Source: a virus
Lineage: Duplodnaviria; Heunggongvirae; Uroviricota; Caudoviricetes
DNA: 20,133 nt
IMG/VR virus record: IMGVR_UViG_2778261637_000004
Direction: 5' to 3' (one strand)
The position numbers and the translations under genes were made by a program. The notes beneath the pieces are model-generated. The model made no database searches. It worked only from the letters and a program-made list of their open reading frames with translations, and was not told where the DNA came from. Below, piece by piece: positions 1-20,133 of this stretch. Position 1 is the first letter of the stretch. The number at the start of each line of letters is the position of its first letter.

Positions 1-837
1 CTATTTCTTCTCTGTAATTTTTACACTGTTTTCCAACTGCTTGATGCTGACCTGCGGGGTCGGCAACTCCTCAGGCATGGTTCCGCCAAGTTCCTGAATG
101 GTTTGCCTCACCTTGCGACCCACGTCAAAGTGTGTGGTGTTAGCTTGCTGTTTTGAATTCACGCCATCCCGCTTGAGTTTTTCTTCTGTTTGGGTAGCTC
201 GAAAGAGATTAGCCGCCAGTTCTGTTGAACCCATATGATCCAGGATCTTCTGACTCTTTTTCAGCCCCTTCCGCTGATGGATGGCTTTCTGATCTAATCC
301 ACCATACAGTCCCCGGTAACCATGATTCTGAAATATGGCGAAATCGATAGCTGTCGCTACCCCAGCTTGCTGCGCTGCCTCAACTAATTGTTTGTTATGT
401 TCTTTCAACTCATTTCTCAGAAAAAGACGCTTTTCGTCTTCACGAAGTTGCCTGAAAGCTTCATCGTCAGCCAGCTCCTGCCGTCGGGTCTGGATAGCAA
501 AATAAGTTTGCCCTGCCGCAATAACCGGTTTCGCAGGGTCGCCGTTTTGTACTACCAGGTAACAGGCATAGCGGGAGAGTACGATGTCTTTTAATGCTCT
601 TTTGGCATTTGAGCCAATTTTGACCATATCGAGGATCTCCTCGAAATGGTCATCAATTGTGTGACCACTATTCAGACAAGCTTCTTTGGCGCGCGTTAAT
701 ACAGGTATAAAGTGACGATACTCTGAATAACCCAGTAGTTTTCCAAGTTGTCTTGCTGACCATTGTTCTGCTCCGTTTGCATTAATCAGCTTTATCTCTT
801 CAAAAGGTTGATGATGTTCGTTCATTGCCCACTCCAT
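1..837 (-). CDS. dinD: DNA damage-inducible protein D (Bro-N domain family)
   Basis: 278-aa ORF with stop codon at 1-3. The protein (MNEHHQPFEEIKLINANGAEQWSARQLGKLLGYSEY...) is recognised from memory as E. coli DinD. A consensus LexA box sits 35-50 bp upstream. The true start is probably the ATG at 825 (MNEHH) rather than 837. Confidence 0.8.
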   Translation of the reverse strand: MEWAMNEHHQPFEEIKLINANGAEQWSARQLGKLLGYSEYRHFIPVLTRAKEACLNSGHTIDDHFEEILDMVKIGSNAKRALKDIVLSRYACYLVVQNGDPAKPVIAAGQTYFAIQTRRQELADDEAFRQLREDEKRLFLRNELKEHNKQLVEAAQQAGVATAIDFAIFQNHGYRGLYGGLDQKAIHQRKGLKKSQKILDHMGSTELAANLFRATQTEEKLKRDGVNSKQQANTTHFDVGRKVRQTIQELGGTMPEELPTPQVSIKQLENSVKITEKK

Positions 838-2388: not shown

Positions 2389-2703
2389 TCACGATAGTTC
2401 CGTTTTGTTGAATTCAATTATATCAAGGTCAGAACTTTCGTAATCCTTACCGAATAAAGCAAAACATATCGCGTCAAGTTCTCTCTTATGTTTGGACGCC
2501 CGATCATAATTACCACCCCAACAGCAAATGAATCCACCAAGTACTGCTGATTCAAAAAGTAATGATGCTGCATCAATATGTCTGAACCAGGAGTCTATAA
2601 GTAAAGCAGAGAGTGATATTAATGTTCCCCACCCGCCAATCCTTCTCCATTTCTCAGCTTCATATTTAAGAGAAGCAATATATTCAATTTTATCTCTCGT
2701 CAT
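2389..2703 (-). CDS. Small predicted membrane protein (104 aa, two hydrophobic segments), AT-rich; last gene of the cargo operon
   Basis: Its ATG overlaps the stop of the upstream 925-aa gene (TGATG), indicating translational coupling. Hydrophobic stretches IGGWGTLISLSALLIDSWF and ASLLFESAVLGGFICCWGG. About 38% GC against a GC-rich neighbourhood. Confidence 0.6.
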   Translation of the reverse strand: MTRDKIEYIASLKYEAEKWRRIGGWGTLISLSALLIDSWFRHIDAASLLFESAVLGGFICCWGGNYDRASKHKRELDAICFALFGKDYESSDLDIIEFNKTELS

Positions 2704-5480
2704 CAGTTCCCCACCGCCTTTCCAAAATCCGGTGCTCTACGTGGCGCAATAGCACCCGGTTCCCACCAACTCGTTATGTCGAACTCCCGTTGCGCGCGGT
2801 CCCTTACTCGATCATTGTAACCAGGGTTTGCCATCTCCTGAAGTTGTTGCAATATCAGGTGATTGGTTATCGCTTTCGCATACCACAGGTTTGCGAATGG
2901 AGTGATCATGCGGGCTGTTTTCAGTGCATCGGCACCGAATGATGTTTCTTCACCCTGTAGAGCCTTCTGTGGGTTAGTAATCAGTAATTTTGTTAACTGC
3001 TCTGCAAAGCTCAACACAGGGCCACCCATAGTGGCACCGATGCTGGAGCCATATTGCGTATGGTCCTGGAAAATAAAATCACCGTAGATACCGAACGAAC
3101 CACCTTTCAGTAGAGCCTGAACCCATGTGGTTGGTTTTGTCATATCCAGCGGGTCATTACCATTTAACAAACTGTTCATCTGGATCGCAAACATACCAGC
3201 AAGAGTTGTTCCCCCGATATATGAGGCCAGAAATTTAATGGCCGGAACGGTGTCCAAATCCCGTGTTCTGTTAACAAGTTGCCGAAATCCAGCAAATGGG
3301 GTTGTTTTGAAGAGCATGAAGCTCTTCATTAACTCGCCAGCATCATCACGGGCATATGTATCAATACCCGTAGCGGTGGTCACAGCATTGGTCATCTCAC
3401 CGTGCGTAATTCCCAGCAATTTCTGGGCTGCTTCAGCGCGTGCATTACGAATCATGCGCGTGATGGTCTGCTCAGCCTCAGCGTCGAATGCTTCTTTCAT
3501 CCGTTTCAGGCGTTCTGGAGGGAGATCTCCAAGGGCTGCCAGTGCCTTTTCACTCCCGGCACGAATCCGGGCAATACGGTCTGCCATAATGTCGGCGATT
3601 ACGTTATCGGGCACAGCGTAAATCGCGTCTGGCGTCATCCCCATATGCCCGGCAGTAGTCATCGGCCTGAGTTCTGCCGCTGCCATGATGGCCCAGTCCT
3701 CATTGCTCCATCCCTTGTTAGCCAGAATGGTTTTATCGGTTCCTTTTATATCGTCCAGCGTCTTAAATTTTCTGGTCAGCTCGCCAATATTTTTGTACAT
3801 CAGGAGACCAAACGACGCTTTGTTTGCGCGGTCCATAGCGATCAGCCCGGACCACTTCAGTGTCTTCTCTGCGAACCAGCCAGTTATGCCGCGAGACAAG
3901 TCAAACCCGCCCATTTTCGAAACCACAGCAGCATGTGAATCCACCAGCAGACCGAGTTCAGCATTCGCCTTTTTGGCATCTCCACTAAACAGGTTTTTGA
4001 TAGTGTTAACGGAAAGCCGCATTCCACCACGGGTAAAGCCCAGCGCCTGCGCATTTGCCCGCATAATTGCCTGGTCGCTGGTTGCTGTCAGTACGCTGGT
4101 GCCAAGCATGGCGCTGGTCATCAGGTTACGCAGACCACCAACTGCTGAAGAGAACACACTCGATGAAGCGACACCATTTAGGCCAGCCATTGAGTTGAAC
4201 ATACGGGCAACTAATTTGGCCTCATCCTCCATTTCTTTTTTGCGTTTCCCGCCTGTTACTGCGCGCTTATAGATGCGATCCAGTACCAGGGAAAAGTTTC
4301 TTTCGGCGTCCGGACCAAAGGCTTTAACGACGCCCAAATCCCTGGATGATGATTGCAGGTGCGACATCATCACCCCCACCAGCGGCTGCTGAGTGTATCG
4401 CTCCATATAGGCGAAGTGTGACTGCGCATCCTTGAACGCCATCACCCTGTGCTGAGAACCACGGCTCTTTATTCCTCCGGCTCCCATAAATGTACCAGGC
4501 TCAATTTTGTTTGCCCCATCAGTGGCCTTCGTTTCAAAGATCGCTTCCAGTGCCTGACGGTACTCGACGTCATTCATAATGCTGCCGTCAGGATTAACGT
4601 AATTGCTGCGATCCTGCGTGTTGTAAGCGTCATCAACCCATTTCTGGCGGGCAAACTCAATCGGTGGCTGGCGACCTGAAAGACGTGCTGTAGCTTGCTC
4701 TGCCACTGGTAACGATGCCAGCCATTCTTCGCGCCCGGCATTGCGAATAAGGTCAGCATCATCCACATATGGCGTATGCCAGTCTTCTCGCAGGCCTATG
4801 TCAAAGCCGTTGTCGTTCATCTCATGACGAACACGGCCTGTTACATCCTTCCAAATCTGTGCAATTTTCTTCGCCAGGGGATTACCGGTATCTTCGCCAT
4901 AAATTTCTTTCAGGATCTGGAGTTGTGCAGACTTTGCCGCCTGCCTGTCGAATACACTCCGAAACCGCTGCTCTCCAAGCGCCCTGCTCTGCTCGAAGAA
5001 TTTGCGGACGTCATCACCTGCTTTTAGAAGTTCAGCACTGAGCTGACGGGACCAGTCCTGATATGCCCCAATTGCAAGCTCTTCAGCAGAAGTAACGGAG
5101 ATATCAGCTTTGTCTCTCGATCGTCGGCCAGCAAAAATAAACTGCTGCAAATTAACAGGTGTCTGCTGATCAGGCGGGATGTTAGCATCGAGAGTGTCAG
5201 TAATTTTACTGATGGCGATCGCATTCTGGGCAACACGCTGTCTTTTCTTGTACACATCATGAACCACACGCTGGCGTACCAGTTCTGCTGCATCCATGTA
5301 TGTTTGAGCATCAGGAATACCACTTTTGCCTTCTTTTGCATTCTTTCTGTGCACATGCTGCACAGCTTCTTTGATACGATCTTCAATATTTTTCAGCTCA
5401 TCAGCCTTTGGCTGGCGACCAAGTGTCTGCGCAATAGCTTCAACACATGCCTGTTTCATTATGGGTTCCTCAAGAAGCAC
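2703..5480 (-). CDS. Large hypothetical protein (~918-925 aa), Gly/Ala/Ser/Thr-rich with hydrophobic glycine-rich segments; cargo operon gene 3
   Basis: Long uninterrupted ORF. The track start is a GTG at 5480; the more likely start is the ATG at 5459 (MKQACVEAIAQ) preceded by GAGGAA. No Walker A or other recognisable catalytic motif. Segments such as GTSVLTATSDQAIMRANAQALGFTRGGM and GGTTLAGMFAIQMNSLLNG resemble phage structural or ejection-protein composition. Confidence 0.85.
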   Translation of the reverse strand: MLLEEPIMKQACVEAIAQTLGRQPKADELKNIEDRIKEAVQHVHRKNAKEGKSGIPDAQTYMDAAELVRQRVVHDVYKKRQRVAQNAIAISKITDTLDANIPPDQQTPVNLQQFIFAGRRSRDKADISVTSAEELAIGAYQDWSRQLSAELLKAGDDVRKFFEQSRALGEQRFRSVFDRQAAKSAQLQILKEIYGEDTGNPLAKKIAQIWKDVTGRVRHEMNDNGFDIGLREDWHTPYVDDADLIRNAGREEWLASLPVAEQATARLSGRQPPIEFARQKWVDDAYNTQDRSNYVNPDGSIMNDVEYRQALEAIFETKATDGANKIEPGTFMGAGGIKSRGSQHRVMAFKDAQSHFAYMERYTQQPLVGVMMSHLQSSSRDLGVVKAFGPDAERNFSLVLDRIYKRAVTGGKRKKEMEDEAKLVARMFNSMAGLNGVASSSVFSSAVGGLRNLMTSAMLGTSVLTATSDQAIMRANAQALGFTRGGMRLSVNTIKNLFSGDAKKANAELGLLVDSHAAVVSKMGGFDLSRGITGWFAEKTLKWSGLIAMDRANKASFGLLMYKNIGELTRKFKTLDDIKGTDKTILANKGWSNEDWAIMAAAELRPMTTAGHMGMTPDAIYAVPDNVIADIMADRIARIRAGSEKALAALGDLPPERLKRMKEAFDAEAEQTITRMIRNARAEAAQKLLGITHGEMTNAVTTATGIDTYARDDAGELMKSFMLFKTTPFAGFRQLVNRTRDLDTVPAIKFLASYIGGTTLAGMFAIQMNSLLNGNDPLDMTKPTTWVQALLKGGSFGIYGDFIFQDHTQYGSSIGATMGGPVLSFAEQLTKLLITNPQKALQGEETSFGADALKTARMITPFANLWYAKAITNHLILQQLQEMANPGYNDRVRDRAQREFDITSWWEPGAIAPRRAPDFGKAVGN

Positions 5481-5487
5481 GCTGCCG

Positions 5488-7512
5488 CTACAGAATAAAC
5501 CTTCGATTCGTTCTGGACTGTCTTAATCTGTTCATCCAACTCAGCCAGGAGATCAGAAAGTTTTGTCGGGTTTCCGGGTGAGCTATAGTCAGCTCAGGAT
5601 TGGCAACAGCCATGTCCCTGGCAGCCATAAGGTCATAGCTGTTGGATGAGAGAACCTGCCCTGTATCTGGATCAACGCTGACGTCCCCTCTGTGTTCACC
5701 AGCCGATGAGAAAGCACTTTCAGCACGAGGGACAGGCGATTCACTAATTGGCTCTGATGATGTTTCATATCTGACACCATTTTCTTCAAAAACCTTTTGT
5801 ATTTCATGGTATTGCTCTTGGTAAGTATCAGATGTATCTGATCGCAATGGACCATCAAGCCCTCGCGCCATCCCCCCAACATTTACAGGCTGACCATCAT
5901 TAAGTTGCCTGTATGCTTCATCCATGGCGTCAACATGGCTGTTGATGCTCTCATTGCTGGTGTGAAGCACTGGTGACGATTCAATATCGTAATGAAGCCC
6001 CTCATTCAAAATGTGGGCTGCATCAATATCGCTTGGTTTTATTCTTTCCCTCGCCCGGATACCAAAAACTTTTTCTACTGCGGCTTCCAGTTTCATATTG
6101 CGAAGACGCATACTTACGAGTAACCGTAACTGCTCAGGTGTAACGGTTCCAACCTGAATACCACTGTATCTGAATATATAGGCTTTAAAACCTGAAATAA
6201 TTTTTTCCCATGACGAAACGCTTGTCTTTAGAGATGGATTTACTGCATGTGCGGCAACTTCTTCAGCGTATAACCACTCAGGATATGTTTCAGGGTACTC
6301 ACCCCTTTTCTTATATTCATAATATTGTGACATCCCATATGCAAATTCAGGATAGTCAGAATGCTTGTTTGCAGATTTAAGTACAGCATTAGCTAGCTTT
6401 CTGGCCTTCCAGTCAGGGTAATGGCGCTGCTCAAGATGAAGCGCCTCATGATGAAGGGTTTCTAACAGTTCTTCATGGTCTTTTAATCCATTAATATTTA
6501 TTCTTATTATTGGTTCTTTTCCAGAAGCTACTGTCACATGACCTTTATTCAGAAGTATTTCTCCATCACTATTTTTTATTGCTGGTTCATTAATAAGTTC
6601 TATTACTCCTGAATCAGATAAATCACGAACCATTGACTCAATGTTACCATCAGGAGATTGCTGATAATGTTCACCAAAAGTTGATTTTATTTCTTCTGCA
6701 GAAATGTTCGACTCTGTACCATCATGGTTATTATGGGTAGTCAGGTGATGAACGCCACCAAAGACCCCGCCTAAAACGGCATCGACTAACATCGCCTGAC
6801 CGTCAAATACCCGGTACTGTTTTGCCATCTCCGTGTAGCCTTTTTCCTCCAGTGTTGCACCGACAGAGTAACGGTTCAGTCCACCGAATCCGGTGTTGAT
6901 TGCCACACCTGAGGCAATGCGCGTTGCCAGTGTGGTGCCGACGGCAGCGGGTAAGGCCATACCCACAGCATTGAAAAGGCTCTGCTGCGTTGCCAGGTTA
7001 CGCGCCGTAGCCTCATCTACTCCCTTCCCTTTAAAATCCTGATAGGACTGCTCATACGTAGAACCGAAGGCTGTAGCAGCGCCGATGAGTGGGCCGCCAA
7101 ACATAGTTGTTCCGATTGCAGGAACAAATTTACCAAGCTCATTTAATACCTCAGCCGCCATTCCCTGGCTGCCTGCATCAGGCTTCACATAGCTGCGGGC
7201 ATCCTGTAACTGTTTTCCGATCGTGTCGTATGTATCATTCAGTGTTTTGTCAGCATCAGGGAACATCTCCCGAAAAATATTAACAGTCGGTGCCACGTCT
7301 GCGGTAAATGCCGGATCGCTAATCAGGCGCTTGCTGAATCCGACGGCAGACTGCGCGAGACCGAGAGCCCCCTCCGCTACGCCGCTCAAAAGTGCAGTAC
7401 CTGAACCCTGGAAGGGAGTCGGATCGTAGTCTTCTGGCCTTGCTGGGTTGGCAACTGTTTTGTCGTCAATCCATGCCTGACCTTCTGGAGCCAAAGAAAA
7501 AACATCAGACAT
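5488..7512 (-). CDS. Large hypothetical protein (674 aa) with an embedded AT-rich segment carrying an HExxH(x4)H zincin-like motif; cargo operon gene 2
   Basis: Its ATG overlaps the stop of the 843-aa gene (TAATG). HEALHLEQRH occupies residues 355-364 (nt ~6421-6450). Roughly nt 6170-6760 are 27-35% GC, against about 55-60% in the flanking parts of the same gene. Confidence 0.85.
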   Translation of the reverse strand: MSDVFSLAPEGQAWIDDKTVANPARPEDYDPTPFQGSGTALLSGVAEGALGLAQSAVGFSKRLISDPAFTADVAPTVNIFREMFPDADKTLNDTYDTIGKQLQDARSYVKPDAGSQGMAAEVLNELGKFVPAIGTTMFGGPLIGAATAFGSTYEQSYQDFKGKGVDEATARNLATQQSLFNAVGMALPAAVGTTLATRIASGVAINTGFGGLNRYSVGATLEEKGYTEMAKQYRVFDGQAMLVDAVLGGVFGGVHHLTTHNNHDGTESNISAEEIKSTFGEHYQQSPDGNIESMVRDLSDSGVIELINEPAIKNSDGEILLNKGHVTVASGKEPIIRININGLKDHEELLETLHHEALHLEQRHYPDWKARKLANAVLKSANKHSDYPEFAYGMSQYYEYKKRGEYPETYPEWLYAEEVAAHAVNPSLKTSVSSWEKIISGFKAYIFRYSGIQVGTVTPEQLRLLVSMRLRNMKLEAAVEKVFGIRARERIKPSDIDAAHILNEGLHYDIESSPVLHTSNESINSHVDAMDEAYRQLNDGQPVNVGGMARGLDGPLRSDTSDTYQEQYHEIQKVFEENGVRYETSSEPISESPVPRAESAFSSAGEHRGDVSVDPDTGQVLSSNSYDLMAARDMAVANPELTIAHPETRQNFLISWLSWMNRLRQSRTNRRFIL

Positions 7513-10043
7513 TATTCAACCCTCACGACAATAGCTTTATTGGTTCTGGGATCTGTTGCCCAGCGTCCGCTACCATTTACAAGCCGATACCGGTTATTGC
7601 CGATATTAACTGGCGTGAAATTTGACACTGCATTTACGTTAAGTCCGGCATCTTTCAGTGCTTGTTTCGCAGATGTGGTATAGCGATCTTTGAAAGTAGA
7701 TTTATCCATGCCGAAAGGCATTACAACGTCGCCGCCATTAAAACCATTGTATATACCGCCAGTAGCATACTTCACGGCATCAGCTACAATGTCTGTATCA
7801 GGCATACTGGTTCTTACCGTAGATGCATCACCAGATTGATAAGCTATTCCTGCATAAGCGGCTTTGAAAAGGCTATAACTGATCTGGCGTAACTGCGGGT
7901 TACGGGCAAATGCATTACCTACCTGTTCGTCGAAAGCGTCTTTCATCTTATCTTCGCTCGGCAACTGTACCGGAGTTATGCCCGCATTCTTCATGGCCTT
8001 CGTCGGATTCAGTAGTTGGTCGCCGGAAAGAATAACCTTTGCAACGTCGTACTTGTTCATCGTCGGCTTATACCCGATGAACTGACTATATGGGATCGTC
8101 GGCTTGGTGTTGTCGTACTGGTTATCCGGCGTGCCCAGCAGCAGCGCAGAATAGGCTGTTGCCGCACTGTTCGGAGCAATTACAGATGCCACCTGCCGTA
8201 TTGCTGGCGCAGGCAGCTTCTCCCCCATGCTCTGCAACAGTTTAATTGTCTGGTCAACGTTCTGAGTGCCGCGCACCTGCTGTGCCAGCGCAGCCGCCTC
8301 TTCACTGTTGAGGATTGGGGCATTAATTCCCAACGCGCGTAAGCTTTCCTGCGACGAGAAACGGTTAGCCACCTCGGCAGTGATGTCGTCAGGGTTGTTG
8401 CTGGTGATCGGCTTATAGGCTCCGATTTCCACCGCTGCACTAAACGGATTATTCTGCCTCTGGGTTATTACCTTCGTGGCTGCCGCCGATACCCGGTCGA
8501 ATAACTCCGCACGAGACGCATACCCCTCCCCTGTTTCACCAGTATCCGGGCGCAATTGCTCAACATATGCGGTAATGCTGCTTGTCGGCATGTTGCGGAA
8601 AGAGCCTATATACTGTCCGGCGATCTGCAAATTTCTGAACTCGATATATCGCAGGTTTCCTTCTCTGACACCATAAGCTGCAATGAACTCATCCTCACCA
8701 GGTGGGTTAGGAAATTCAACGCCACGCATAAACGCAGCCGTTGCATCGCGAACCCTGCTATCGAGCATCGTTCTATATTCAGCCTGCTGCTGTCTGGCTA
8801 ATGCATCCGTCTGTCGCAACACGCTGGCCTGATCTGATTCACTTAAAGCATCGAACCAGGCTACACCGGTATAACGTTTATTTTTTGTCGGTAGCTGAGA
8901 AAGCCCCAGTGCGGCACTAACGCCAGCGGCCAATTGCTGATCACTGTACGGCTGACTGCCTTGCTCATGATGAATAATTGCTTTGCACAGAGATTTCAGT
9001 GTGTCAGGATTTGATGCGTCAAGCGGCTGGTCAGGAGTTACACCGAGCTGAGCACATACTGCCCGTATATAAGCATCAGTTTTATTATCATCACTGGCCG
9101 GTGCCCAGCGATTAATTATTTCGCTGATGGTGTCATAACCCTGACGCTGATACGACAGCAAATTGCGACCAAGCGCGCGAATACCGTGTTCAGGGGTTTC
9201 GAATTTGGCAAAGCGACCATCATCACCAGTCTGCCCAACCCACGGATTAGTTTTGCTGTATTCAAGATTGCCGGGGTTATTGTTGCGTATACCGCGGGTA
9301 CGATCGGAAGAGCCACTATCTGCTACAGCACGGCGAGATCCAGCAGCAGTATCGCTTAACTCTCCGTTTTGCTGTCTTACCTGAAGATAGTTTGCTCCAA
9401 TAGCATTTTGAGCAGTTGCTTTTGCTGTTGCTTCTTTAAACTCGATTTTCTTGGCCTGGATTTGCTCGTCGCTCCAGCCATGCGCAATACCGTAATCCTC
9501 AATTTGCTGGAAAGTTTGCGTATTAGCCAATATGTATGCTGCGTTGTTGCCATATAATGCTGAGGCATTTTTACCATTATTCAGCAGTGTCGCCTGAAAC
9601 TGGCCTTCTTCGTAGGCATTTATTTGCCCTATCTCGTACCTCCCGGCCTGCGTAGCGAACTGAATACGCTGCTGCTGCGCCTGCTGCATGAAAGCATTAC
9701 GAGCCTGTTCATCCGGCAGCGACATAGCCAGTTGTTCGACCTGAGCATCAAACTGCTGTGTATACTCATGGCCTTTTCCAATAGCATTTTTCCCTTTCAG
9801 ATTAAGCAATCCTGTTTCAGGATTATTCAGCAGATCACTGCCTGTCTGACTGAGTTTAAGGGATGCCTCCTGAACCAAGGCAATATTGGCGCGCTGTTTT
9901 GCCTGACCAAGAACATCAATTGCCTCTGTCCCTGCCCGAACAAAAGCATCACCAATACCTGGCTGAGAAAACGTCTGCAAGCCTGCTGACTGAACTCCAC
10001 GGCTCTCAACCTGACGTCCGGATACTGTTGGTACGACTGGCAT
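7512..10043 (-). CDS. Large hypothetical protein (843 aa), Gln/Ala-rich N-terminal region and a conserved-looking GIRNNNPGNLEYS...RWAP block; cargo operon gene 1
   Basis: Long ORF with ATG at 10043 and an AGGGGG Shine-Dalgarno upstream. The block at residues 251-315 (nt ~9099-9293) looks like a conserved domain core. GKNAIGKG is not a canonical Walker A. Confidence 0.85.
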   Translation of the reverse strand: MPVVPTVSGRQVESRGVQSAGLQTFSQPGIGDAFVRAGTEAIDVLGQAKQRANIALVQEASLKLSQTGSDLLNNPETGLLNLKGKNAIGKGHEYTQQFDAQVEQLAMSLPDEQARNAFMQQAQQQRIQFATQAGRYEIGQINAYEEGQFQATLLNNGKNASALYGNNAAYILANTQTFQQIEDYGIAHGWSDEQIQAKKIEFKEATAKATAQNAIGANYLQVRQQNGELSDTAAGSRRAVADSGSSDRTRGIRNNNPGNLEYSKTNPWVGQTGDDGRFAKFETPEHGIRALGRNLLSYQRQGYDTISEIINRWAPASDDNKTDAYIRAVCAQLGVTPDQPLDASNPDTLKSLCKAIIHHEQGSQPYSDQQLAAGVSAALGLSQLPTKNKRYTGVAWFDALSESDQASVLRQTDALARQQQAEYRTMLDSRVRDATAAFMRGVEFPNPPGEDEFIAAYGVREGNLRYIEFRNLQIAGQYIGSFRNMPTSSITAYVEQLRPDTGETGEGYASRAELFDRVSAAATKVITQRQNNPFSAAVEIGAYKPITSNNPDDITAEVANRFSSQESLRALGINAPILNSEEAAALAQQVRGTQNVDQTIKLLQSMGEKLPAPAIRQVASVIAPNSAATAYSALLLGTPDNQYDNTKPTIPYSQFIGYKPTMNKYDVAKVILSGDQLLNPTKAMKNAGITPVQLPSEDKMKDAFDEQVGNAFARNPQLRQISYSLFKAAYAGIAYQSGDASTVRTSMPDTDIVADAVKYATGGIYNGFNGGDVVMPFGMDKSTFKDRYTTSAKQALKDAGLNVNAVSNFTPVNIGNNRYRLVNGSGRWATDPRTNKAIVVRVE

Positions 10044-14707: not shown

Positions 14708-14965
14708 TTATTTCCCGGTGTGGGGTTCTTCTTTATATTTATGGGCTAACAAATCTGGTAATTGCCTGTATTTATCCTCGGCAATATATTCAGAATAATC
14801 GACAGCACTGTTCAGTATATCTAACGCCGTTTCATGCTCCAGATTCGAAACTATAAGGAACGTTGCTACTTTTAGCATATTCGCGATATGCAAAAGAGCA
14901 TCAATTTCATTTTTTGGCGCTTCGCTGAATTTTTGCTCCAGAAGAATAAATCGTTCATCACGCAT
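14708..14965 (-). CDS. Hypothetical protein (85 aa)
   Basis: ATG at 14965 preceded by AGGAGGA; acidic, helical-looking sequence. Confidence 0.6.
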   Translation of the reverse strand: MRDERFILLEQKFSEAPKNEIDALLHIANMLKVATFLIVSNLEHETALDILNSAVDYSEYIAEDKYRQLPDLLAHKYKEEPHTGK

Positions 14966-15161
14966 AGTGTTCCTCCTGACGGATGCGGGCAGTAAATACC
15001 ATCACGCAGCCAGCCGGGGATTGCTGACGGGCTTCCTGTTCGCTGGTGGCCACGATGTGAATCACGCGCGGTTGTGCCGTACTCAGGGCGATAAAACGCC
15101 AGATGTATTTATTCAGGTTGTGCGAGTCCCGCCCTTGCGGGTGTGTGGTATGATTTCTCAT
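14958..15161 (-). CDS. Hypothetical small protein (67 aa), first gene of the leftward replication operon
   Basis: This is the C-terminal 67 codons of the 415-aa track ORF, starting at an ATG (15161) with GAGGT upstream; it overlaps the next gene by 8 nt. The rest of the 415-aa ORF conflicts with a well-supported plus-strand gene. Confidence 0.45.
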   Translation of the reverse strand: MRNHTTHPQGRDSHNLNKYIWRFIALSTAQPRVIHIVATSEQEARQQSPAGCVMVFTARIRQEEHYA

Positions 15162-15257
15162 AGCTACCTCGATACTTCTGCTATCGTTGGTGGTTAGAAG
15201 CCCGGTTAGTGTTAGCGCACTGCCGGGTTTCGTCGTTTCTGCACCTTGCATCAACAA

Positions 15258-15336
15258 GGTGTAAGTAACTTTATTTATAGGTGGCTTACATGTCAATGCT
15301 TTTATGTAAGACTTTTTATGTGTATATTGTCTTACA
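15258..15336. promoter_or_regulatory. Divergent promoter/operator region with nested inverted repeats
   Basis: GTGTAAG (15258-15264) pairs with CTTACAC (15330-15336), and CTTACAT (15284-15290) with ATGTAAG (15303-15309). TATATT -10-like element at 15322-15327. Lies between the leftward replication operon and the rightward RHH-like gene. Confidence 0.45.
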
Positions 15337-15357
15337 CTTTCGTTAAGAGGATTACAG

Positions 15358-15663
15358 ATGGCTACAGGTTCAAAAAACGCAAAATCACAATCGCTGACAG
15401 CTCGGATCCCGCATGATGTTATTGAAGGCATGGAATCCGTAAAACTGGACGGCGAAAGCAACGCCGGATTCATAGTAACCGCCATGCGTGGTGAGATCGC
15501 CCGCCGCCAGGCAGAAGGAAGCGGAGAAAATCCCCTCGTGTCTTCACTGGATGCCTTAGTTAAGGTCGAACAAATCGGCATCAAGGCAGCGGAGGAAATC
15601 GGGCAACTCGTAGCCGTCGCTCGTGAAGAACTCCAGCGCCGGGAGGCCAAAGAGCAGGAATAG
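15358..15663 (+). CDS. Small DNA-binding protein, ribbon-helix-helix-like (MobC/CopG-like); candidate island regulator
   Basis: ATG preceded by AAGAGGA. SLTARIPHDVIEGMESVKLDGESNAGFIVTAMRGEIARR is consistent with an RHH N-terminus followed by a helical C-terminal region. Confidence 0.6.
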   Translation: MATGSKNAKSQSLTARIPHDVIEGMESVKLDGESNAGFIVTAMRGEIARRQAEGSGENPLVSSLDALVKVEQIGIKAAEEIGQLVAVAREELQRREAKEQE

Positions 15664-15720
15664 CCACTATCAGCGCCATAGTTTGAGGAACGCAGGCGCA
15701 TTGCTTTACAGGGCAGCACC

Positions 15721-15900
15721 ATGAGCGACACAGAATCAACAAAAACACCATCACCAACTCGTAAGAGACGACGCAAAAATATAGCGCATGAACATGAATC
15801 AGAAAGATTCGCACCTTGTTCGTTTGCTCTTGAGAAATTCCTTAAAGAGCACAGGAAAAAGCTCTCGTTGCAAACCCTGGAACGAACCAAATCTGACTGA
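15721..15900 (+). CDS. Small basic protein (59 aa), not in the ORF track
   Basis: Hand translation gives MSDTESTKTPSPTRKRRRKNIAHEHESERFAPCSFALEKFLKEHRKKLSLQTLERTKSD. Followed by a plus-strand terminator; the ribosome-binding site is weak. Confidence 0.35.
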   Translation: MSDTESTKTPSPTRKRRRKNIAHEHESERFAPCSFALEKFLKEHRKKLSLQTLERTKSD

Positions 15901-15967
15901 TCACATTGCCCACCAGCTGCAAATCTGGCATTGTTGGCGATGCGTTTGATTTCCTTTGTTCCCACTG

Positions 15968-15995
15968 GCGACCTCTCCCGGTCGCCTTTGTTTTG
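15968..15995 (+). terminator. Rho-independent terminator for the rightward small operon
   Basis: GGCGACC-TCTCCC-GGTCGCC hairpin followed by TTTGTTTT. Confidence 0.6.
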
Positions 15996-16044
15996 CCAGT
16001 TATCCAGCAACGGGGCGCTTTTTCTTTCTGTAACGTTCGGATCG

Positions 16045-16602
16045 TTACACATTGTTTTCACCCTCCAGAAAATCAGGCTGATATTTACGCCATAGCGCCC
16101 GCTCTTCTCGTTCCAGTGCATCTTTTGCCTCTTTGCATTGCTGTAACCTGTAACCGCGTTTGCTGGCTTCCTGTTGATAGGCAGCCTGGCGTTTACTGAA
16201 ATCATTCAGCATGGCAAACGGAACACCATAACCCCCCGTTTTGCGGATTGAAGGGATAACCTCGCGGAATACCCAGTTACTGAAACGGTGCGCAAATGTG
16301 CCTGGTGTGGAAGCTTTACGGCTGCGGGCGATCAGTTTGTAGAAACCTGATTCAGAGACAACATTCCAGCTTCTGGCACCACCACGCTTACCGGAATGCC
16401 CCTCGGTTAAAGCTAGGGTCATTACCTCGTCGTTATCCAGAACTGAAACGGCATCAGTAACATTGCTGATTTCCAGCGCAGCACACACATCAGCGCCAAC
16501 AAACCACGGCTCGCCGTTGATACTCACTATGCGCACCTGAATGTCATCGAATTTAATGACAGAGATTTCAGTGCGCCCGGCATAAAAGACAGGTTTACGC
16601 AT
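16045..16602 (-). CDS. Bro-N domain protein (phage anti-repressor family)
   Basis: 185 aa. IQVRIVSINGEPWFVGADVCAALEISNVTDAV is a typical Bro-N core. 8-nt overlap with the upstream gene. Confidence 0.8.
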   Translation of the reverse strand: MRKPVFYAGRTEISVIKFDDIQVRIVSINGEPWFVGADVCAALEISNVTDAVSVLDNDEVMTLALTEGHSGKRGGARSWNVVSESGFYKLIARSRKASTPGTFAHRFSNWVFREVIPSIRKTGGYGVPFAMLNDFSKRQAAYQQEASKRGYRLQQCKEAKDALEREERALWRKYQPDFLEGENNV

Positions 16603-17496: not shown

Positions 17497-17703
17497 TCAG
17501 GCTGATGTGTTTCGGCGTTCTTCCAGCCAGCGATTAATCTCTACCGCATCAAACGCGGTAACATTACTGGTAAGTTTTATAGGCCGTGGTAACGTGCCAT
17601 TTTTCACCCAGCGATCGATTGTTGGCATAGAGACTCCCAGCAGTTCTGGCAAACGGTATCGGCGAATGTAGCCAGTAGTAGGAATGGTAGATTGTTCTGT
17701 CAT
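17497..17703 (-). CDS. alpA: AlpA-family transcriptional regulator / excisionase-like protein
   Basis: 68 aa with a winged-HTH core (YIRRYRLPELLGVSMPTIDRWVKNGTLPRPIKL); the usual integrase partner in P4-type and CP4-57-type islands. Confidence 0.8.
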   Translation of the reverse strand: MTEQSTIPTTGYIRRYRLPELLGVSMPTIDRWVKNGTLPRPIKLTSNVTAFDAVEINRWLEERRNTSA

Positions 17704-17814
17704 GTTCCCATAGCTCCTGTTGATAGCGGTTGACGTTACGGGAACAAATTTAGCGATTTGATAGGTGATGGATAAGGCACACTAGTTCTACTGTGCCTGT
17801 ATAGTTAAGTCACT

Positions 17815-18771
17815 CTACACCTTTCCGTTAGCTGCGGATCTTAAGTGTTTTAGGATTACGTTTTCGTTAGTAATGGTTAGCGGTGGTATCTCATCTTTGT
17901 GAGTGAGAATACAATCACGCCACTTTTCAGGGCTTATTTCTTTGCGTTCACCCCGGCACTCATCAGGGTATTTTGATAGTAAGTATATTGCAGATTTAAA
18001 TAGCTTTTCTCTATTCGTTGCGTGATGTTCTGCAATGTGATTAACCTTTTTTATTTCCTGCATTAACTGAGGATTGGCGGAAACCCCTCGTCGAGTGTTA
18101 TTTGGGAGGTCACTGTAATCACCATTGTATTTTAGTAATTCTCTTACTTGGTCTGAGGTTATCCATAAATCATTTTCCGTTATTTCGACGTCAGAATATA
18201 CTTCTTCATAATTTTCGTCATCTTCTTTGCTATCGTAAATATCATCATAATCTAGCAATAAAGGAATTAAACAAAGAGCGGGTGTGGTCTCATCAGTACG
18301 ATAAAGATCCAAAGACCCCCATAAAAGAGAAGATTTCCCATAATTCAATACTGAATTTATTACTGGCAGTTGGGGAACCCACAAGCCAAAGGCTCTTCCT
18401 TGATGGCTTTGTGATTTTTCGCTAGAAGAACTTCCCTCAGCTAGTTGAGACTGATAGAACCATGGATGGAAAATTGTGTCATCATTTTCTTGATCGTAAG
18501 AAACTCGATCAATAGCGAATGATGTATATTTTGATATATTGCGAGCAGATGCTAGAACGCTATTGTTAGTACTTAAAGATAAATACCAATCGCTAAGCTC
18601 AGTTGCATTACCTTCAATCCATAGGACTGATTTTAATCCATCTAACCTAACGCATAGAGTTATTTTCTCAGATACAGCGAGGCTTAGTAAATCATCAGTA
18701 CTAACACCTAAAAAATCAGCAGCCCTTTTTATACGGCAAAATGAAAATGGTATTTTTGTAGTGTCAGACAT
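17815..18771 (-). CDS. Hypothetical protein (318 aa) with an N-terminal HTH-like segment; AT-rich int-proximal accessory gene
   Basis: ORF of 957 bp at about 35-40% GC. The N-terminus (RIKRAADFLGVSTDDLLSLAVSEKI) is HTH-like. Length and position resemble yfjH of CP4-57, but sequence identity is not verified. Confidence 0.7.
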   Translation of the reverse strand: MSDTTKIPFSFCRIKRAADFLGVSTDDLLSLAVSEKITLCVRLDGLKSVLWIEGNATELSDWYLSLSTNNSVLASARNISKYTSFAIDRVSYDQENDDTIFHPWFYQSQLAEGSSSSEKSQSHQGRAFGLWVPQLPVINSVLNYGKSSLLWGSLDLYRTDETTPALCLIPLLLDYDDIYDSKEDDENYEEVYSDVEITENDLWITSDQVRELLKYNGDYSDLPNNTRRGVSANPQLMQEIKKVNHIAEHHATNREKLFKSAIYLLSKYPDECRGERKEISPEKWRDCILTHKDEIPPLTITNENVILKHLRSAANGKV

Positions 18772-18864
18772 ATGCCACCTTTAAGCATTTCACCTTAAAA
18801 AATGAATGAGTCCAGCGGTAAGGTTTTCCGCTCTTCACCCCGTCGGGCTAGGCTCAATCTGTCC

Positions 18865-20133
18865 CTATGATAGCTTATGCATTTTCCTGATTGGCGTCAC
18901 GTTGTATTCTTCATTGCGTTCTAGCGCTACCAGCAGATCAGCCCACTGTGCCAGCGCAGCTTTACGCTCATCAAAATACTGATGGCGGTTATAAATCCCC
19001 TCCACACCCTTAATGCGATGATTGAGGCATCGTTCCGCTACGACAGGATCAACACCCAATGCTGCTAAATGAGTACGTGCGGTACGCCGGAAGTCGTGAA
19101 TCGTGAAATTAGGCACATCCGGCATTTCGGCGCGAACCTTAGCCAGTGCTACGGGTAAAGTGCTTTCCTGAATATGTGGGATCATTCTGTTTTGCATCTT
19201 CCTGGCTGGAAGCACCCATGCGCTATTACATGAAAAGGTGTGTAGCTCTCTCAACCATTCAACGGCAGGAGAAGGTAGAGGTATATCAATAGGGTCTCCG
19301 TTTTTGCTGCGTTCTTCCGGCAAATGCCATACCGCACCATCTAAATCAAACTCTTCCCATCGTGCGGCGCATAACTCCATCTTACGAACGCATAGTGCCA
19401 GCAATAGCTTAAATGTCAGTTCGTTCTGGCGGCTGAATCCTTTGGCTTTACGCATTGCCTGAAAAAATTGGATTAATTCGTCACGGTTCAGCCAGCGATC
19501 ACGAGATAATTCTTTCCCACCAGCATCTGATACTTCGAAAGCTGAGCAGGGATTTATCTCCAGAGCGTGGCGTTTTATCCCATAGTCAAAGATACGGCGT
19601 GTCCAGCGTAATACATCTGTTGCTATCGTTGGTGCTCCTCGGTCAACGATACCTTTCAACATGTCGTCAATGTGGCGTGGCTTAACGTCCTCTACCTTCA
19701 TATGCCCAATGCAGGGGTTAATATCCTTATCAATTCTCCGGCGAAGGATATCGGGATGTTTCCATCTCGGAAGTATCTGTCGCTCGAAGTATTCGGCGGC
19801 CAGATCTGAAACGCGCATGGCGTTTTTCTCAGCCTCCATTTTTGCCAGTGCTTCAGCTTTTCGTTCCTGTTTTTCTGCTGCTACGTCATAGCCAAGAGCA
19901 ACTCTGGCTGACAGCTCTTTTGCTGTTTCTCTGGCTTTTGATAGTGACAGTTCGGAGTAAGAGCCGATAACCATAGCCCGCTGTTTTCCTGCGAGCTTAT
20001 ATCGGAATCGCCAGAACGGGACTGTGTAGTTTTTGGGGTAGCAAATATAAAGGCCGTTGCCGTCTGCCTTGCCATCAAATCTGTCTCCCGCCTTTATCCA
20101 TGCGCGGATCTGCATATCTGTGAGTTTTGGCAT
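18865..20133 (-). CDS. Tyrosine recombinase, P4-type integrase with an N-terminal arm-binding (DUF4102-like) domain
   Basis: 422 aa. The N-terminus (LTDMQIRAWIK...DGNGLYICY...WRFRY) matches the P4-integrase arm domain. The C-terminus has HDFRRTARTHLAALG and a GIYNRHQY tyrosine region. The start codon is the final three bases of the window. Confidence 0.9.
   Translation of the reverse strand: MPKLTDMQIRAWIKAGDRFDGKADGNGLYICYPKNYTVPFWRFRYKLAGKQRAMVIGSYSELSLSKARETAKELSARVALGYDVAAEKQERKAEALAKMEAEKNAMRVSDLAAEYFERQILPRWKHPDILRRRIDKDINPCIGHMKVEDVKPRHIDDMLKGIVDRGAPTIATDVLRWTRRIFDYGIKRHALEINPCSAFEVSDAGGKELSRDRWLNRDELIQFFQAMRKAKGFSRQNELTFKLLLALCVRKMELCAARWEEFDLDGAVWHLPEERSKNGDPIDIPLPSPAVEWLRELHTFSCNSAWVLPARKMQNRMIPHIQESTLPVALAKVRAEMPDVPNFTIHDFRRTARTHLAALGVDPVVAERCLNHRIKGVEGIYNRHQYFDERKAALAQWADLLVALERNEEYNVTPIRKMHKLS

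Follow-up and report, generated by a model that had tools for sequence, protein, structure and literature searches.

The virus record IMGVR_UViG_2778261637_000004 of IMG/VR is a 20,133-nt stretch of DNA, referred to here as the window, which carries on its minus strand, at positions 17815-18771, an open reading frame (ORF) of 318 aa, the target of this analysis. To judge from its genes alone, the record represents a phage satellite of the phage-inducible chromosomal island (PICI) type: it has co-oriented int, alpA and DUF927 primase genes and no full set of virion genes, and it also encodes Icd-like, SSB, ProQ/FinO and AntA/BRO-N proteins. The target lies between int and alpA, in the same orientation as both, and locations of this type are already known as the 5′ accessory or regulatory interval of PICI-type satellites. 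The P4-type integrase encoded directly upstream matches the Pfam families Arm-DNA-bind_3 (1e-19), Phage_int_M (8e-17) and Phage_integrase (5e-16), and it is 86-97% identical to the integrases of yicC-adjacent islands in Escherichia coli, Pantoea, Yersinia and Tatumella.

The initial annotation of this DNA had described an AT-rich gene in a variable interval, with a helix-turn-helix (HTH)-like N-terminus and an acidic, Asp/Glu/Tyr-rich centre, and these features are all borne out. The GC content of the target is 37.4%, against 48.3% for the window, and its GC content at third codon positions (28.2%) is the lowest among the 19 main ORFs; two small ORFs of the window (2389-2703 and 14708-14965) have a nearly equal overall GC content of about 38%. 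Comparison with the orthologues of Intestinirhabdus (L012) and Pectobacterium (L013; L numbers are given where loci need to be told apart) yields a ratio of nonsynonymous to synonymous substitution rates (dN/dS) of 0.09-0.12 at a dS of 0.3-0.8, and values of 0.04-0.06 for the N-terminal 53 and the C-terminal 74 residues. Synonymous sites are saturated between subfamilies, and this comparison gives no sign of positive selection within a subfamily. The target is thereby confirmed as a real, constrained gene under purifying selection.

The target belongs to a large, unnamed protein family that is restricted to the Enterobacterales. A word-indexed search recovers 68 clusters of the family, all the named ones being "hypothetical proteins" of Enterobacterales, and an exhaustive profile search of 1.84 billion representatives finds 693 clusters at E≤1e-3 and 206 at E≤1e-10, counted at 50% identity and mostly 270-350 aa in length. 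Ten distant clusters that were sampled are hypothetical proteins of Brenneria, Enterobacter or Salmonella, or are unnamed. The allele of the window occurs in one of 5,426 complete E. coli genomes, that of ETEC1716 (98.9% identity), whereas E. coli commonly has other alleles of the family, two clusters of which number 374 and 263 sequences. A literature search found no paper describing the family, and no clear orthology to a characterised backbone gene is seen, because the whole family is uncharacterised.

An AlphaFold2 model built from a 45-sequence alignment (mean predicted local distance difference test score, pLDDT, 81.4; predicted template modelling score, pTM, 0.65) divides the target into several units (Table 1). 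The N-terminus is predicted to fold into a winged helix, the best structural matches of which are Pukovnik Xis, the AlpA-family excisionase of GIsul2 and RdfS; hhalign places it in register with the island's own AlpA, with a probability of only 4.4%. A beta-rich domain follows, and then a linker that is predicted to be disordered, in which 11 of 24 residues are Asp or Glu and 4 are Tyr. The C-terminal domain is the most conserved part of the family and, taken alone, is mildly basic (isoelectric point, pI, 8.7; family mean charge +1.5). It is 50-80% identical to the corresponding part of proteins of 316-321 aa, the first ~195 residues of which cannot be aligned with the target, and because this identity is kept while synonymous sites are saturated, the conservation acts on the protein. 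Seven residues, E248, A251, R254, E255, C272, R273 and W284, are invariant in the 45 sequences.

Neither the whole target, three fragments of it (E≤10), 110 family members nor 10 members of odd length match Pfam, NCBIfam or PADLOC (PADLOC-DB v2.0.0), apart from a sub-threshold HTH_17 match (E 0.005) in one of the 110, and residues 1-53 alone match nothing in Pfam even at E≤10. The sole library match is phrog_7144 of PHROGs v4 (E 6.5e-15, 56.3 bits), a family of unknown function that carries no functional annotation; residues 5-262 of the target align with positions 6-253 of the 313 in the profile, a stretch that excludes the conserved C-terminal domain. When the PDB was searched by sequence with two family profiles, a lone match to CDPK3 proved to be spurious, caused by a His-tag/TEV-site. 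Domain and structure searches recognised no catalytic, membrane, NTPase, nuclease or toxin signature in the target.

The position of the family gene is strict. In every context recovered (more than 40 loci) the order is int, family gene, then alpA and/or primase, all co-oriented, with the family gene always directly downstream of int at a distance of 13-110 nt. This holds for all 13 contexts found through the protein and for 29 further IMG/VR loci found by a scan for an RNA motif, mostly contigs of satellite size (15-18 kb). The 13 contexts comprise the E. coli ETEC1716 island, which is flanked by dinD and yicC, those of two further alleles from E. coli, Pantoea, Yersinia, Brenneria, two Salmonella islands at another attachment site, a 24.7-kb "plasmid" of Morganella, the Klebsiella phage record P12620-1 and three loci from a scan of genome contigs, in Intestinirhabdus, Pectobacterium and Tatumella. 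Complete int-gene-alpA triplets number 34, of which 29 are unique, and they span at least three integrase lineages (26% identity). The target is thus not sporadic cargo; its family is the commonest, position-fixed occupant of the int-alpA slot across many satellites.

The slot itself is optional and exchangeable. It is empty in EcCICFT073, holds a protein of 216 aa in the extraintestinal pathogenic E. coli (ExPEC) XM, yfjH in the cryptic prophage CP4-57 and DUF6387 (PF19924) proteins elsewhere, and these other occupants are likewise without a match in PADLOC. Homology between the target and the 216-aa protein was considered and rejected, since nothing significant was found, the C-termini being vaguely alike by eye. 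The DUF6387 proteins, uncharacterised and 268-301 aa long, resemble the target in occupying the same slot upstream of alpA behind the same leader RNA, but their sequences are unrelated, the target-family profile scoring E 0.05-0.8 against them. In ICEKp258.2, a DUF6387 gene lies directly upstream of alpA at the island end opposite to int.

Two of the recovered contexts deserve separate description. In ETEC1716 (L001; NZ_CP122880.1, 55343-69791), int, the target, alpA and antA are ~99% identical to those of the window, whereas the distal module differs and encodes DUF2213, a lytic transglycosylase and another primase; the two halves of such islands, left and right, therefore recombine freely. 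The Morganella morganii record p46903_1 (L017; NZ_CP070523.1) is circular, holds terS/terL twice and carries int, the family gene, alpA, primase, capsid, protease, portal, connector, HNH and terminase genes. The record probably represents a capsid-forming PICI after excision and partial duplication, deposited as a plasmid.

Upstream of the target, the spacer after int holds the Rfam motif RF02996, named "int-alpA RNA", which is an orphan motif of the small RNA class. The match scores 42.5 bits in cmscan, against a gathering score of 35.8, and ends 21 nt before the target ATG; it is composed of an 8-bp outer stem around two hairpins, followed by a U-rich tail and AAGG. In 9 of the 13 contexts found independently of the motif, RF02996 lies 15-21 nt upstream of the family gene (L004, L009, L010/11, L012, L013, L014, L017 and L018), among them those of Morganella and Klebsiella, where the integrases have only 26% identity. 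In the examined loci with an empty slot or with the 216-aa protein in it, the motif was not found. Conversely, among 43 int-linked IMG/VR loci that bear the motif and extend far enough downstream, the gene that follows belongs to the target family in 29, encodes DUF6387 in 13 and another winged-helix-like protein in one. The motif is not specific to the target family, as it precedes DUF6387 genes and is missing from 4 of the 13 family contexts; across related loci it serves as 5′ leader to the gene in the slot, be it one of this family or DUF6387, and is not tied to alpA itself. Its outer stem and U-tract are unlikely to be a plain int terminator, because the U-run is not conserved among instances, and a small ORF that follows the motif is not conserved either.

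Directly before the target ATG, a mini hairpin with a stem of 4-5 bp covaries across loci (GCGT/ACGC, ATGC/GCAT, ACGT/ACGT) and may serve to present the Shine-Dalgarno sequence in its loop. A promoter scan found no sigma-70-like promoter on the coding strand between int and the target, so that the two genes are probably co-transcribed. Some islands (L005-L007, L080 and L081) have the family gene without RF02996; downstream of alpA they encode a C4 antisense RNA (RF01695). In the E. coli loci L005-L007 this RNA (10006-10231 in L005) occurs with isrK and a c4-a1b1 target motif beside a Phage_ASH gene, an arrangement that resembles the c4-ant immunity module of P1/P7.

Downstream of the target, an inverted repeat starts 17 nt after the stop codon. 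Its stem, GGTACAGT...ACTGTGCC, recurs after the gene in L005, L009, L010, L012 and L074 and is kept in diverged loci despite the saturation of synonymous sites; further copies of ACAGT/ACTGT are present close by. The repeat could be a terminator-like hairpin or an operator, and it abuts the putative -35 element of a candidate alpA promoter that agrees with the consensus at 8 of 12 positions, which is below the threshold of the promoter scan. A second inverted repeat forms the leader of alpA, with compensatory changes in its stem (CCCGTAAC/GTTACGGG, CCCATAAC/GTTATGGG and CCCCTAAC/GTTAGGGG, plus G·U pairs). This stem-loop is conserved across at least 10 loci and may control translation or transcription of the master activator. 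Islands that lack the target gene have it as well, so that it belongs to alpA; dependence of the hairpin on the target is ruled out.

Table 1. Features of the int-alpA interval of the window and predicted units of the target protein
Feature	Position (nt)	Strand	Target residues	Details
P4-type tyrosine integrase	18865-20133	-		422 aa; directly upstream of target
RF02996 "int-alpA RNA"	18793-18858	-		in 93-nt int-to-target spacer
Mini hairpin	18772-18788	-		ATGC-TTAAAGGTG-GCAT; Shine-Dalgarno in loop, directly before ATG; read from sequence
Target ORF	17815-18771	-	1-318	318 aa; ATG start; from ORF listing and translation
N-terminal part	18613-18771	-	1-53	predicted Xis/MerR/AlpA-type winged helix; net charge about 0
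Winged helix			~11-53	beta-alpha-alpha-wing; AlphaFold2 model
Middle part	18259-18612	-	54-171	acidic, beta-rich; conserved GLW motif (G129)
Beta-rich domain			~76-170	AlphaFold2 model
Acidic linker	18187-18258	-	172-195	LLDYDDIYDSKEDDENYEEVYSDV; pLDDT 53-67
C-terminal part	17815-18186	-	196-318	includes stop codon
Short beta-beta-alpha unit			196-213	DLWIT..., then disordered loop; AlphaFold2 model
Helical C-terminal domain			245-315	E.HA.NRE ... YPDECRG ... ISPEKWRD; AlphaFold2 model
11+11 inverted repeat	17775-17798	-		AGGCACAGTAG-AA-CTAGTGTGCCT; 91% complementary, near-perfect
Candidate alpA promoter	17747-17775	-		TTATCC-17 nt-TAAATT; read from sequence
alpA leader inverted repeat	17703-17746	-		GTTCCCGTA...TATGGGAAC; encloses alpA Shine-Dalgarno, ends at ATG
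alpA	17497-17703	-		68 aa; Pfam Phage_AlpA 3e-06, HTH_17 6e-07

The two parts of the protein differ in how they vary with their neighbours. Across the 29 unique triplets, the Spearman correlation of pairwise identities is 0.68 between Int and AlpA, 0.55 between the C-terminal domain and AlpA and 0.41 between Int and the C-terminal domain, and it falls to 0.17 between the N-terminal part and AlpA and to 0.07 between Int and the N-terminal 195 residues. Individual loci agree with this: in L058 the same gene (91-95%) and alpA (85%) stand behind an integrase of only 26% identity, and in L046 and L056 integrases that are 90% identical are followed by unrelated slot alleles. These patterns and the correlations indicate that the gene travels with alpA rather than with int. 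The N-terminal two thirds behave as an exchangeable specificity cassette that is swapped independently of Int. Co-evolution of the C-terminal domain with the integrase, which had been suggested by 10 loci, is rejected with the 29 unique triplets.

The preferred reading, to which a probability of about one in three is given, sees the target as a sensor or regulator of the resident state, linking the alpA/int switch of the satellite to infection by a phage. While the satellite is resident and uninduced, the gene would be transcribed together with int, and its product would be a modular adaptor with a variable N-terminal and a conserved C-terminal module. The acidic, Xis/AlpA-like winged helix and the fast-swapping beta domain would form a specificity or sensing module, and the conserved, mildly basic helical domain at the C-terminus would bind a partner that is itself conserved, whether a protein or DNA close to the alpA promoter. 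In such a role, the target would supplement the basic AlpA circuit, which could do without it, and would not be a stand-alone defence enzyme. The fixed position of a family that is seen nowhere else in more than 40 contexts supports this reading, as does the linkage to alpA, which the DUF6387 gene of ICEKp258.2 shares; exchangeable defence cargo normally occurs in several kinds of site. The constraint on the gene and the size of the family count in its favour too, as do the architecture (a winged helix and a variable N-terminal part joined to a conserved C-terminus, with no catalytic, membrane or NTPase signature) and the arrangement for expression, in which RF02996 precedes the gene, a conserved hairpin follows it and no promoter-like site was found between it and int. 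A sensor or regulator is also favoured because Gram-negative PICIs have no known repressor or helper sensor; in them AlpA is the activator of the satellite cycle, and its switch-on by helper phages is unexplained (PMC6092414).

Several observations weigh against a sensor or regulator. Low GC is typical of accessory "moron" genes. The charge of the protein is unusual for a DNA binder: the winged helix lacks a basic character (net charge -2 on average in the family), the pI of the target is 4.9, the mean charge of the whole protein across the family is -10.6, and the putative recognition helix contains an aspartate, Asp27, that is kept throughout the 45-member alignment and in at least 90% of a 110-member one; the acidic winged helix, the invariant Asp27 and the acidic protein together argue against a classical DNA-binding repressor. 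The alpA leader hairpin is the same with or without the target family. In ExPEC XM, an integrase 97% identical to that of the window is followed by the unrelated 216-aa protein, and unrelated DUF6387 proteins stand behind the same leader in 13 of the 43 motif-bearing loci; with such exchangeable occupants the slot looks like a cargo hotspot, and immune systems have been reported at the 5′ end of PICIs (PMC11364771). In the prototype PICI, EcCICFT073, int and alpA are separated by 365 bp that hold no gene, and yet this element is helper-inducible and transferable (PMC6092414), so that the target gene is not required for the basic satellite cycle. Lastly, DNA binding, the partner protein and co-transcription with int are each inferred.

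A more specific form of the sensor reading, by analogy, compares the family with Stl (Rpr), the master repressor of Gram-positive satellites (Staphylococcus aureus pathogenicity islands, SaPIs, and PICIs). Like the target, Stl is satellite-encoded and int-adjacent, is expressed in the resident state (as is probable for the target) and combines an HTH-type domain with a highly variable region that possibly matches different phage proteins (PMC6092414). The differences are substantial: there is no sequence similarity, the HTH of the target is not basic, Stl is divergent from the operon it regulates whereas the target is co-oriented with int and alpA, and the target is dispensable in at least one functional PICI, EcCICFT073. 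That the family would be the missing helper-phage sensor of many Gram-negative PICIs, and thus a functional counterpart of Stl, is an unlikely proposal at present. Under it, int and the family gene would be expressed together in the resident state, with the RF02996 leader setting the amount of the family protein, the variable module of winged helix and beta domain would bind a helper-phage protein, and the conserved C-terminal domain would restrain the alpA promoter, or AlpA, until that binding takes place. The DUF6387 proteins would be an analogous, alternative sensor.

The main rival to sensing or regulation, held to be only slightly less probable, is that the target is an accessory anti-phage gene in the 5′ hotspot of the satellite, acting in superinfection exclusion or in interference with helpers or competitors. 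It would be expressed in the resident state together with int, the variable N-terminal part recognising a phage component and the conserved C-terminus being the effector. The optional and exchangeable slot, the low GC content, the expression expected in the resident state and the turnover of the N-terminal two thirds, which is independent of Int and AlpA, would all suit such a function. Immune systems are reported at the 5′ or 3′ ends of PICIs (PMC11364771), and the related satellite EcCIMP1 provides immunity to superinfection by way of unknown genes (PMC11773190). The initial annotation had pointed to PADLOC as a place where a defence gene might be recognised, but no PADLOC family matches the target at E≤0.01, and the protein has no recognisable effector domain (nuclease, NTPase, membrane or toxin) and no partner gene. 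Moreover, the family is confined to one slot in one class of element across more than 40 contexts, whereas Tai, as an example of a mobile defence gene, is spread over phages, P4-like elements and PICIs.

The strongly negative charge that counts against a DNA-binding repressor, together with the acidic disordered linker, is what an acidic protein-binding factor would show, one that targets the host or other mobile elements, for example as an anti-defence protein, a DNA mimic or an anti-repressor-like protein and uses its winged helix for contacts between proteins. The island also encodes the anti-repressor-like proteins AntA and BRO-N. Nevertheless, the searches made gave no similarity to known anti-defence or DNA-mimic proteins, and the argument is one of composition alone, which makes this explanation improbable.

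Less probable still is a recombination directionality factor (RDF) or integrase cofactor, which would place its N-terminus on the arm DNA of the attachment site and its C-terminus on the integrase, so as to direct integration or excision. The best structural matches of the N-terminus are excisionases and RDFs, and the gene is always found directly downstream of int. The known proteins, however, are of 50-120 aa and are recognised by Pfam models such as HTH_17 and Phage_AlpA; the target is about four times the size of known RDFs and matches no Pfam HTH model, its putative recognition helix is acidic (Asp27) and not basic, and ~265 further residues are without a structural match. While an RDF is expected to be small, basic and co-varying with the integrase, the target has 318 aa and a pI of 4.9, and the N-terminal part does not follow Int (Spearman 0.07, with L058, L046 and L056 as examples). 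In PICIs the function of promoting excision is already supplied by AlpA (PMC6092414, PMC11773190), and EcCICFT073 excises normally without the target gene.

The likeness to yfjH suggested in the initial annotation stands for length and location, since YfjH (b2623) of the E. coli K-12 cryptic prophage CP4-57 is also an uncharacterised protein of 318 aa encoded between intA and alpA, but it fails for sequence and strand. The best BLASTP alignment has an E value of 1.6, hhalign of the 110-member family profile against YfjH gives a probability of 0.4%, yfjH is encoded on the strand opposite to int and alpA, and RF02996 is not found at the CP4-57 locus (L003); the equal length is a coincidence, and orthology, refuted at the sequence level, can be discarded.

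Three large "cargo" genes on the minus strand of the window (2703-10043), encoding 925, 674 and 843 aa, match internal-virion or ejection families of PHROGs, including a lytic transglycosylase (phrog_684, phrog_1145 and phrog_992), and have no match in PADLOC or NCBIfam. In this the island is similar to EcCIMP1, a validated PICI with the podophage Kapi1 as its helper, which encodes DNA-transfer-like proteins downstream of the primase (PMC11773190). The 415-aa ORF at 14958-16205 (minus strand) is over-extended, as the Icd-like cell-division inhibitor matches its last ~100 codons only, and the ORF at 15358-15663 (plus strand) encodes a YlcI/YnfO family protein, as annotated in related islands. 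At the far end from int, the ORF that runs from the first base of the window (1-837, minus strand) matches a specificity subunit of type I restriction-modification systems and also the PADLOC candidate system PDC-S13, with E values of 1e-113 to 6e-121.

The int-alpA interval of many enterobacterial satellites is a structured expression slot, made up of RF02996, a gene, a hairpin and a putative alpA promoter, and not an empty spacer or a site of random cargo. One large, unannotated protein family fills it in about two thirds of the motif-bearing islands sampled, and the orphan Rfam motif "int-alpA" is the 5′ leader of the slot gene. The strict position, the size of the family and the link between RF02996 and the slot gene are the new points, none of which fixes the function. 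Were the target neither a sensor nor an immunity gene, it would be a conserved hypothetical protein of modest interest; as an immunity gene, it would found a new single-gene defence family of ~700 sequence clusters. Should it prove to be a sensor or regulator, a gap in satellite biology would be filled, and if it were a counterpart of Stl, the orphan "int-alpA" RNA would gain a function and the switch-on of alpA by helper phages would be explained.

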